This document shows, piece by piece, positions 45,144-46,133 of a stretch of 64,000 nucleotides of DNA. Source of the stretch: Escherichia phage BF17; sequence record MW822008.1; one strand, written 5' to 3'. Positions within the stretch are counted from its first letter, which is position 1; each line of letters opens with the position of its first letter. The translations under genes were made by a program, and so were the position numbers. The notes beneath the pieces are model-generated. The model ran no database searches. It saw nothing but the letters and a program-made list of their open reading frames with translations, and was not told the DNA's origin.

Positions 45144-46133
45144 ATGGCTAAAAAAATTAATGAAGCACAAGTTAAAATCGATATCGCAGGTCTAGAATCT
45201 GAAGATCTAGAAACACTATCTCGTATGCTTGCATTAGCTGGTCAAGCAGAGCGTCAAGCTTCTCCTGTTGCTGCTCCAGTTCCTTCTATGGGGTCTATGA
45301 CCCCTTCTCTACCACCAATCGCTCCACTCGACATGGATTCCATTGGTGCTGGTGCTGAAGAAGAAGTTGGTGGTACAATGGATGGTGCGATTGATGCACC
45401 AGTTGAAGACCCATTGGAAGTAGCTGCTGACTCACTATCTGCTGAAGCTGGTGATTTTGGTGGTGATTCTGAAGAAGTAAGTATGGATGCAGAGTTCGAA
45501 GAGCCTGGTGTTGCAGATGAAGAAGAGTTTTCTTTAGATCTTTCCGGTCAACCTCAACTAGAATCAGTTGAAGAAGAGGAAGAAGAAGAAATCATCGAAG
45601 AAGAATTCGATTTCAGTCGTATGCTATCTCTAGCTGGGCTTCAAGACGAACCAGAAGATGAATATTCAGTAGAAGGTAACCCAGATACTGAAGTTAAAGT
45701 TGAAGAAAACACTTTCCTACCAGACCTAACCATCTCTGAAGATGAAGAACAAGGTGACAGTACTGATTTTGGACCTTACAACACTGAAGCTGATGCCGTT
45801 CGTGACGGTCAAGCTAAAACTAATGGTGTAGAAGGTGACCACTTTGTTGTTATTACCAAGGGTAACAAGTTCTACTGGAGACGTGTCGTTGATGAAGATG
45901 TTGACAATCGTCCTGAACCAGAGTACTATGACAATGACGGTAACGAGAACCGTGTTCACAAATTTGAACCTAAGTTTCCAGGTACTGCTCTAGGTGACAA
46001 CCCACTCAATGTTAATGAGAGTGATGAGTCCGTGGAAGGTAACGAAGAACTAGAAGATGAAAGCGATGAAGAAGTCGAAGACATTTTCGAAAGTCTCCAG
46101 AAGAAATATCAACAATTTCTAGGGGACAAATAA
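45144..46133 (+). CDS. highly acidic, low-complexity protein (329 aa)
   Basis: Long Asp/Glu runs (EEEEEEEIIEEEFDF); repeated motif SRMLALAGQ / SRMLSLAGLQ. Confidence 0.55.
   Translation: MAKKINEAQVKIDIAGLESEDLETLSRMLALAGQAERQASPVAAPVPSMGSMTPSLPPIAPLDMDSIGAGAEEEVGGTMDGAIDAPVEDPLEVAADSLSAEAGDFGGDSEEVSMDAEFEEPGVADEEEFSLDLSGQPQLESVEEEEEEEIIEEEFDFSRMLSLAGLQDEPEDEYSVEGNPDTEVKVEENTFLPDLTISEDEEQGDSTDFGPYNTEADAVRDGQAKTNGVEGDHFVVITKGNKFYWRRVVDEDVDNRPEPEYYDNDGNENRVHKFEPKFPGTALGDNPLNVNESDESVEGNEELEDESDEEVEDIFESLQKKYQQFLGDK

Follow-up and report, generated by a model that had tools for sequence, protein, structure and literature searches.

A strongly acidic virion protein of a Rak2-like jumbo myovirus and its possible place inside the head

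Why does a jumbo phage keep, among its structural genes, one for a strongly negatively charged protein of low complexity, and where in the virus particle would such a chain be used? The question is raised by a 329-amino-acid (aa) protein encoded at positions 45144–46133 (+ strand) of a 64,000-nucleotide (nt) stretch of DNA from Escherichia phage BF17 (sequence record MW822008.1), the whole of which is hereafter called the window. An original prediction, made from the sequence alone, had left two possibilities standing, a DNA mimic acting against restriction or a scaffolding or internal protein of the virion. The reading that best fits the evidence is that of a protein that is packaged within the head or near the portal and has probably been processed, a location and a function that we infer; in its sharper form, namely that of an internal head protein that undergoes processing, the explanation is held here at about even chances. 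As it stands, the finding is an ordinary one, concerning a known family member whose role is a point of interest for the inner body of Rak2-like phages.

The gene, its family and its presence in virions

The gene is genuine. It was called and translated as an open reading frame (ORF) running from ATG to TAA (45144–46133, +), which bears out the 329-aa product originally described; it starts after a gap of 22 nt from the stop codon of the upstream gene and is preceded by a ribosome-binding site, AAGGA, read at 45129–45133 (+), 10 nt 5' of the ATG. The opposite strand is interrupted by many stop codons throughout, and a reverse-strand gene at 45144–46133 was ruled out on these grounds. With an isoelectric point (pI) of 4.05, 93 Asp and Glu residues against 20 Lys and Arg, and a net charge of -73, the product is as extreme in its acidity as had been supposed: Glu accounts for 17.6% and Asp for 10.6% of its residues, together 28.3% versus a median of 14% for the 67 ORFs of the window, and its charge per residue (-0.222) is the most extreme among all 67. 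Both acidic tracts that had drawn attention were located in the translation (EEEEEEEIIEEEF, residues 143–155, and DESDEEVED, residues 305–313), and so were two copies of the SRML(A/S)LAG motif (SRMLALAG, residues 26–33, nt 45219–45242; SRMLSLAG, residues 158–165). The two copies fall in nearly invariant alignment columns of a large family of homologues, which rules out a chance ORF or an artefact of ORF calling. The run of seven Glu residues is encoded by a (GAA)7 microsatellite (45570–45590, +), whose length varies between near-identical phages, a 99%-identical relative having one unit more; where close relatives differ by indels, these always lie within the acidic linkers described below.

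The window derives from a Rak2-like jumbo myovirus, since the region shares 99% DNA identity with the E. coli phages Ecwhy_1, WPEC3, WPEC5 and fEgEco12, and ~84% with 121Q, phAPEC6 and PBECO4 (genus Asteriusvirus, Rak2-like myoviruses with genomes of ~350 kb). The 329-aa protein matches the family PHROG 15988, labelled 'virion structural protein', from end to end (E 7.1e-124; residues 1–329 on profile positions 1–317 of 317). Its orthologs include 121Q gp560 and phAPEC6 gp267c (77% identity to both), CBB_213 (41%) and RaK2 ORF050 (37%), and identity rises to 99–100% with annotated virion or structural proteins of WPEC3 (100%), fEgEco12 and Ecwhy_1. A tblastn search found the protein in 72 phage records, which belong without exception to jumbo phages infecting enterobacteria, Xanthomonas or Vibrio, with identities from 100% (WPEC3) down to ~35% and full query coverage in 66 of the 72; a word-indexed search retrieved 95 homologues, and an exhaustive profile search of 1.84 billion representatives retrieved 87 cluster representatives at E <= 1e-3. 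These family members, GAP32_207 included, agree with the 329-aa protein in length, domain order and flanking genes, and it is accordingly a member of the catalogued PHROG 15988 with nothing substantive setting it apart.

Outside the family, little was recognised. No Pfam, NCBIfam or PADLOC model matches the 329-aa protein; for 34 relatives, searches with Pfam, NCBIfam and PADLOC yielded no more than STAS_2 noise below threshold, in eight members; a profile search of PDB sequences returned nothing below E = 1, its single match at E = 1.1 being taken as chance; and Foldseek of the C-terminal model against BFVD found family members only, with no informative fold match. When only the first 41 residues were used as the query, a word-indexed search gave no matches.

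The genomic context is that of a structural block. The local order opens with the tail sheath and three tail-tube paralogs, which are followed by a head-completion protein that is gp4-like (TnsA fold), an ORF of 185 aa, five structural-labelled genes, of which the gene for the 329-aa protein is the fourth, and a 125-aa ORF; past the latter come a 316-bp gap, a MoxR AAA+ ATPase, a protein combining metallopeptidase and vWA domains and, further downstream, thymidylate synthase. The same order is found in 121Q, fEgEco12, phAPEC6, RaK2 and CBB, and the place of the 329-aa gene is conserved, that is, between virion proteins of ~500 aa and ~130 aa, with the gp4-like gene on its 5' side and the MoxR and vWA genes on its 3' side.

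Presence in the particle is documented by mass spectrometry (MS) of orthologs in other phages, performed on whole virions purified in CsCl. phAPEC6 gp267c was identified in virions by one peptide, corresponding to 4.9% coverage (PMC7247149), and CBB_213 by five peptides, corresponding to 18.9% coverage (PMC5259590); RaK2 ORF050 was MS-positive as well (Table S5 of PMC5259590), and the main text of the RaK2 paper does not mention it. Low coverage is to be expected here, because tryptic digestion gives usable peptide sizes for only ~32% of the sequence. For the one peptide of phAPEC6, residues 12–27, IDIAGLESDDLETLSR, are the sole possibility. Tryptic peptides of the N-terminal module are present in mature virions of CBB and presumably of phAPEC6. 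Thanks to these detections in three phages, the protein can be regarded as a bona fide virion component in the Rak2-like group. With regard to the original prediction, which had suggested virion proteomics as a check, the orthologs in CBB, RaK2 and phAPEC6 provide the answer as far as presence in the virion is concerned, and a location in the head would be a further step. The general proposal of a virion protein is upheld by the PHROG 15988 match, the ortholog MS and the late structural block; its scaffold part is disfavoured, given that relatives have a scaffold gene of their own and that peptides of the protein persist in virions. A catalogued virion-protein family, a 100%-identical deposited protein and published presence in the particles of three relatives were thus already known. 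What is new here is modest: the modular anatomy of the protein, the candidate cleavage sites, a re-reading of the published peptide data by which the N-terminal module is kept in virions, and the portability of that module in uncultured myoviruses, where its neighbours are genes for head completion, the neck or the terminase.

Modular architecture and candidate processing sites

Conservation along the protein was assessed on an alignment of 34 diverse relatives (A1), as mean identity per segment, and set beside AlphaFold2 (AF2) models. Described in this way, the protein is a conserved polyanionic architecture, predicted to be mostly disordered, in which short motifs of a docking type stand on an acidic string: the predicted local distance difference test (pLDDT) score lies below 50 for 146 of the 329 residues, and modelled helices are found at residues 19–38, 90–99, 157–163 and 311–326. 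The most conserved part of the family is the N-terminal module (residues 1–36, MAKKINEAQVKIDIAGLESEDLETLSRMLALAGQAE; 45144–45251, +), which shows a mean identity of 78%, has invariant N6, E7, A8, D21, A32 and A35, and includes LAG helix 1 (AF2 helix 19–38). Next comes polyacidic linker I (residues 37–152; 45252–45599, +), predicted to be disordered (pLDDT mostly <50), which holds the E7-II-E3 tract and keeps its charge at 20–26% identity outside its motif; within it lies a degenerate LAG-like helix (residues 89–106; 45408–45461, +) that is 40% identical and has the family consensus AVDDLAGSVTDFG. LAG helix 2 (residues 155–166, FDFSRMLSLAGL; 45606–45641, +) bears the second copy of the SRML(A/S)LAG motif and is modelled as helical at residues 157–163; F155, M160, L163 and G165 are nearly invariant, the segment 153–166 has a mean identity of 57%, and a hidden Markov model (HMM) of the N-terminal module weakly re-matches this stretch.

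Beyond polyacidic linker II (residues 167–187; 45642–45704, +; 14% identity, low pLDDT), the acidic N-terminal half gives way to the C-terminal domain at the LPDL motif, E-x-x-(F/L)LPDL(S/T)(L/I)xED (residues 188–200; 45705–45743, +), with 55% identity and invariant P193, D194 and L195. The conserved C-terminal domain (residues 207–290, mean identity 56%) consists of a mini-domain and an extension. The former, of beta-alpha-beta-beta (EHEE) order (residues 207–250; 45762–45893, +), was modelled with pLDDT 88–96 at residues 208–247 in two independent AF2 runs, is invariant at G210, T226, N227, G228, F234, W245 and R247, and gave no significant fold match; the latter (residues 251–290, ...PEPEYYD..G...H......PGTALGDNPL; 45894–46013, +) is conserved and is modelled without regular secondary structure (pLDDT 63–72). 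Polyacidic linker III (residues 291–309; 46014–46070, +; 30% identity), inside which most of the DESDEEVED tract falls, leads to a C-terminal amphipathic helix (residues 310–329, EVEDIFESLQKKYQQFLGDK; 46071–46130, +) of 48% identity, in which E316 is invariant and S317 nearly so (AF2 helix 311–326, pLDDT about 80).

Across 86 relatives, the charge of the whole protein remains between -0.17 and -0.24 per residue, and the linker contains 25–38% Asp and Glu and only 0–5 Lys and Arg, its sequence being 12–26% identical versus 78% for the N-terminal module. Because the charge of the linker is kept across these relatives and its sequence is not, selection acts on charge rather than on sequence.

Several of the conserved motifs contain sites that a T4-type prohead protease, which is encoded by relatives, could recognise. 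Cleavage by gp21 of T4 takes place after L/I-x-E, and Alt is shortened by an N-terminal propeptide of seven residues as well as by a C-terminal one (PMC9026906). The pattern [LIVM]-x-E occurs at residue 7 within the N-terminal module (I5-N6-E7|A8, INE|A) in 96% of sequences, at residue 199 within the LPDL motif (residues 197–199, ISE|D) in 97% of 80 sequences, and at residue 316 within the C-terminal helix (IFE|S) in 99% of sequences, all three being candidate sites; it is also conserved at residues 168 and 188. The published peptide data of CBB are of help here, in that the distribution over gel slices could be deduced from first occurrences and row counts, slice 13 being that of lowest mass. 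N-terminal peptides of CBB_213 (residues 12–27 and 28–38) occur first in slices 02 and 05; three peptides of the C-terminal domain occur only from slice 09 downward and stand alone in slices 12–13, which contain mainly proteins of 10–24 kDa, versus 33 kDa for the full-length protein. The peptide QINEASVR (residues 4–11), which spans residue 7, is never seen in the CBB report. The CBB pattern suggests a cut that would leave an acidic fragment from the N-terminus and one of ~13 kDa from the C-terminus, both of which would be kept in the virion.

The modules are not confined to proteins of this length. The exhaustive profile search also returned proteins of 370–717 aa in which the N-terminal module, acidic linker and second LAG helix lie internally, the module starting near residue 115 or 317 with unrelated domains on either side; in a PHROG scan of these proteins, that segment alone matches family 15988. 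For instance, a contig from a crustacean metagenome (L009:1-13619), belonging to a distant myovirus, is collinear with window positions 35760–43047 (sheath, tube, tube, gp4-like, and homologues of the 41929 and 42514 ORFs); there, the next gene encodes a 618-aa protein with an internal acidic module, and beyond it lie an 81-aa ORF, an HNH endonuclease on the opposite strand and the large terminase (TerL). Two other module carriers from uncultured phages adjoin genes for T4 gp15-like and gp13-like neck proteins. The C-terminal parts travel as well: some relatives (P0021, P0061) contain three tandem copies of the mini-domain, and an LPDL-type motif with the mini-domain is inserted into an unrelated virion family, PHROG 14154, of jumbo phages of the Atu_ph07/Phosso type (P0155, L007:10001-12130). 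Within the window, HMMs of each module found no paralogue among all six-frame ORFs, and a regular expression for the LAG motif matched the 329-aa protein only; when the distant proteins that carry the module were compared with cultured phages by tblastn, either the Rak2-like family alone or nothing was returned.

Possible place in the head and rival explanations

In the mechanism favoured here, the 329-aa protein would be made late and built into a T4-type prohead, where trimming at the conserved (I/L)-x-E sites would divide it into two parts, one N-terminal and acidic, the other C-terminal and small. These would remain within the head, along the DNA-free axis or close to the portal, where an 'inner body' is seen in 121Q and phAPEC6, a place from which exit together with the DNA would be possible. 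The most likely docking sites would be the 36-aa N-terminal module, the two to three LAG helices, the LPDL motif, the ~45-aa mini-domain and the C-terminal helix; the acidic linkers, whose charge is kept and whose sequence varies, would serve as a DNA-repelling spacer. The location within the head, the processing, the docking through motifs and a part in the inner body or in ejection are what we infer for this family. As for the inner body itself, bubblegram imaging has revealed a phiKZ-like one in 121Q and phAPEC6, measuring 91 x 18 nm and following the portal axis in phAPEC6 (PMC7247149 for phAPEC6); internal proteins of such a kind are therefore expected in this phage group, and the 329-aa protein and its acidic neighbour of 130 aa are plausible candidates.

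A number of observations weigh against this explanation. The low spectral counts in CBB and the low MS signal fit a bulk component of the inner body poorly, and the GAP32 ortholog was not detected in virion MS (Table S5 of PMC5259590). Moreover, the MS was made on whole virions and covers head, neck, tail lumen and surface alike. As regards cleavage, [LIVM]-x-E is easily found in a Glu-rich protein, and its conservation may mirror that of the surrounding blocks; the CBB gel smears heavily, with 20-kDa proteins appearing in the ~100-kDa slice, and because of this smearing the fragment pattern could be degradation, processing being suggested only. The proteins packaged inside the T4 head are basic, not acidic, and Pfam and PDB-sequence searches revealed no homology of the 329-aa protein to any characterised internal protein. 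Finally, the authors of the phAPEC6 study favoured RCC1-domain proteins as inner-body candidates (PMC7247149), and a search of the literature found no paper assigning inner-body or neck proteins in Rak2-like phages.

Some of the same observations would suit a different position. The protein could be an accessory of the neck, the portal or head completion that works at the portal vertex while DNA is being packaged or afterwards, a polyanionic plug or spacer in the portal, neck channel or tail-tube lumen that is held by the conserved helices; we consider this unlikely, if well worth keeping in mind. A copy number limited to the vertex would fit the low MS abundance, and the retention of the N-terminal module in mature virions is in line with it. 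So is the genomic context, given that the gene lies in a block downstream of the gp4-like head-completion nuclease, that in the distant collinear contig the module gene is followed by the 81-aa ORF, the opposite-strand HNH gene and TerL, and that in two uncultured phages it adjoins neck genes of the gp15-like and gp13-like types. Synteny is weak evidence, however, since late structural genes form clusters in any case, and no match to a known neck or portal protein appeared in Pfam, PHROG or fold searches. Low MS signal and the lack of detection in GAP32 would also be explained if the protein were an assembly scaffold or chaperone for the prohead core or another virion part, mostly removed in the manner of T4 gp22, with the MS signals coming from residual fragments. 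The fragment-like distribution in the CBB gel points the same way, as do the several conserved [LIVM]-x-E sites, reminiscent of T4 core proteins that are cut to pieces, and the MoxR–vWA–metallopeptidase pair, a proposed processor of virion proteins, ~1 kb downstream. This explanation is nevertheless distinctly improbable: in relatives, a separate scaffold gene adjoins the protease and capsid genes (phAPEC6 gp226c), the model is mostly disordered and has no long coiled coil, virions of three phages, after purification in CsCl, still yield peptides from the C-terminal domain as well as the N-terminal module, and MoxR lies on a separate transcription unit of the sigma70 type.

The other half of the original prediction, a DNA mimic that blocks host nucleases or DNA-binding defence proteins and is delivered with the genome like T4 IPI* or P1 Dar, has become very improbable. 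It is true that extreme negative charge is conserved as a property and not as a sequence, that packaging in the virion would allow action at DNA entry, and that T4 IPI provides the precedent of an injected anti-restriction head protein (PMC9026906). However, positive support did not emerge from any side. Neither the query nor any of the 34 relatives matches a model of Pfam, NCBIfam or PADLOC, those for Ocr and ArdA included, and there is no match to a PDB sequence or fold. The structure prediction that had been suggested as a check produced, with AlphaFold2, a disordered chain without the compact fold and DNA-like array of carboxylates, patterned in charge, of known mimics. Besides, the gene sits in a late structural context and not among early genes, and its family is strongly conserved, also in gene order, in phages whose hosts belong to different genera, unlike anti-defence genes with their fast turnover.

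The internal-head reading can be taken one step further. The 36-aa module together with the LAG helices may form a hitherto undescribed docking or loading signal that places a polyanionic, disordered chain in T4-type jumbo heads, where the chain would form or nucleate an inner body unrelated to that of phiKZ or be ejected ahead of the DNA; the signal would then be a portable device for loading cargo, similar to the T4 capsid-targeting sequence. This is a tentative proposal, possible but on the doubtful side, and it draws on the fusion of the module to unrelated domains in uncultured myoviruses, where the contexts are always head-completion, neck or terminase genes. If the N-terminal module were indeed a head-loading signal, it would be usable to package foreign proteins into therapeutic jumbo phages, and it would show how a strongly negative protein coexists with densely packed DNA.

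Neighbouring genes and comparison with known systems

Two neighbours are virion proteins that are conserved along with the 329-aa protein. The upstream one, of 503 aa when counted from the ATG at 43610 (43610–45121, +), belongs to PHROG 16305 (121Q gp559, CBB_212, RaK2 ORF049); the ORF listing begins at a GTG at 43568, and the PHROG match at the ATG at 43610. Orthologs of this protein have been found in virions by MS in GAP32 and RaK2, and in phAPEC6 as gp268c with six peptides. It shows an internal duplication (VPNGYVYTSHTGGKYVF... and VPHGYRITSNKGKTYIK...) and a segment rich in Pro and Glu (EPEPVAEPEPEVP). The downstream one, an acidic protein of 130 aa and pI 4.2 (46135–46527, +; PHROG 14971; 121Q gp561, CBB_214, RaK2 ORF051), is encoded from 1 nt past the stop codon of the 329-aa gene, and its orthologs are MS-positive in CBB and RaK2 virions. 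Its weak match to phiKZ_IP (PF12699) proved untenable, since the score falls short of the cut-off of 27 both here (18.6 bits) and in the 121Q ortholog (13.7), and the RaK2 and CBB orthologs give no match. Further upstream, a 181-aa protein (43051–43596, +) carries the label 'Hsp70 heat shock protein' (PHROG 16152, RefSeq) without support from Pfam or NCBIfam; the label is probably a propagated misannotation of a virion protein. The three tail-tube paralogs stand in a row after the sheath (38811–41469, +; 228, 258 and 364 aa), with hairpin terminators after the sheath (38430–38451) and after the first tube gene (39514–39537).

No strong promoter or terminator was found within 39537–46908. The T4 late-promoter motif TATAAATA occurs once in the whole window versus 8.3 times expected from shuffles, and the late genes are therefore evidently without a T4-type late promoter. 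In the 316-bp gap 5' of the MoxR gene there are two perfect sigma70 promoters (46934–46961 and 47026–47053, +), both with TTGACA, a 16-nt spacer and a TG-extended TATAAT (12/12 matches), and a strong hairpin terminator follows 3' of that gene (48574–48601). Because of its own sigma70 promoters and terminator, the MoxR gene looks like a transcription unit of the host RNA polymerase, apart from the structural block. The MoxR-type AAA+ ATPase itself (47225–48553, +) is followed by a protein (48629–50038, +) composed of a DUF2201_N metallopeptidase domain (HEILH) and a DUF2201/vWA domain, a pair that has been proposed to act as a chaperone system for virion assembly and processing (Iyer et al. 2021); the MoxR-type ATPase of phAPEC6 has been detected in virions by MS. 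Finally, two very large ORFs on the opposite strand (55496–61216, 1906 aa, and 61366–63927, 853 aa; both -; pI about 4.05–4.08) probably encode tail-fibre proteins, as judged from their position relative to phAPEC6.

When the 329-aa protein is compared with characterised systems, each resembles it in part. With the scaffolding core protein gp22 of T4 it shares a very acidic composition and several conserved L/I-x-E sites. It differs from gp22 in that its gene belongs to the tube/gp4 block and not to the vicinity of the protease and capsid genes, where relatives keep their own scaffold gene, in that only four short helices and no coiled coil are predicted for it, and in that its orthologs persist in mature virions. 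A high density of Asp and Glu is likewise common to Ocr, ArdA and T4 Arn. Known DNA mimics are small, rigid folds with a patterned charge, and the 329-aa protein is about twice their usual size; unlike T7 Ocr, ArdA and T4 Arn, it is without homology to them, lacks a compact fold in the model, is not encoded by an early gene and has orthologs that are packaged in the virion.

The inner-body proteins of phiKZ (PF12699) are different too, in that the 329-aa protein and the 34 relatives give no match to them at E <= 1; the authors of the phAPEC6 study also reported no similarity to phiKZ inner-body proteins (PMC7247149). Compared with IPI, IPII, IPIII and Alt of T4, the 329-aa protein shows no PHROG or Pfam homology, and the T4 internal proteins are small and basic, whereas the 329-aa protein has a pI of 4.05 and is predicted to be disordered. 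The capsid-targeting sequence of T4 is removed, whereas the conserved N-terminal module past residue 7 is kept in virions, as seen in orthologs. The likeness to the T4 internal proteins and Alt lies in being packaged, non-shell proteins of a T4-type head, which is the location proposed here for the 329-aa protein. It extends to Alt in particular, as MAKKINE|A would release seven residues, the length of the Alt propeptide, with an I-x-E|A end at this putative cleavage site and a candidate site near the C-terminus as well.

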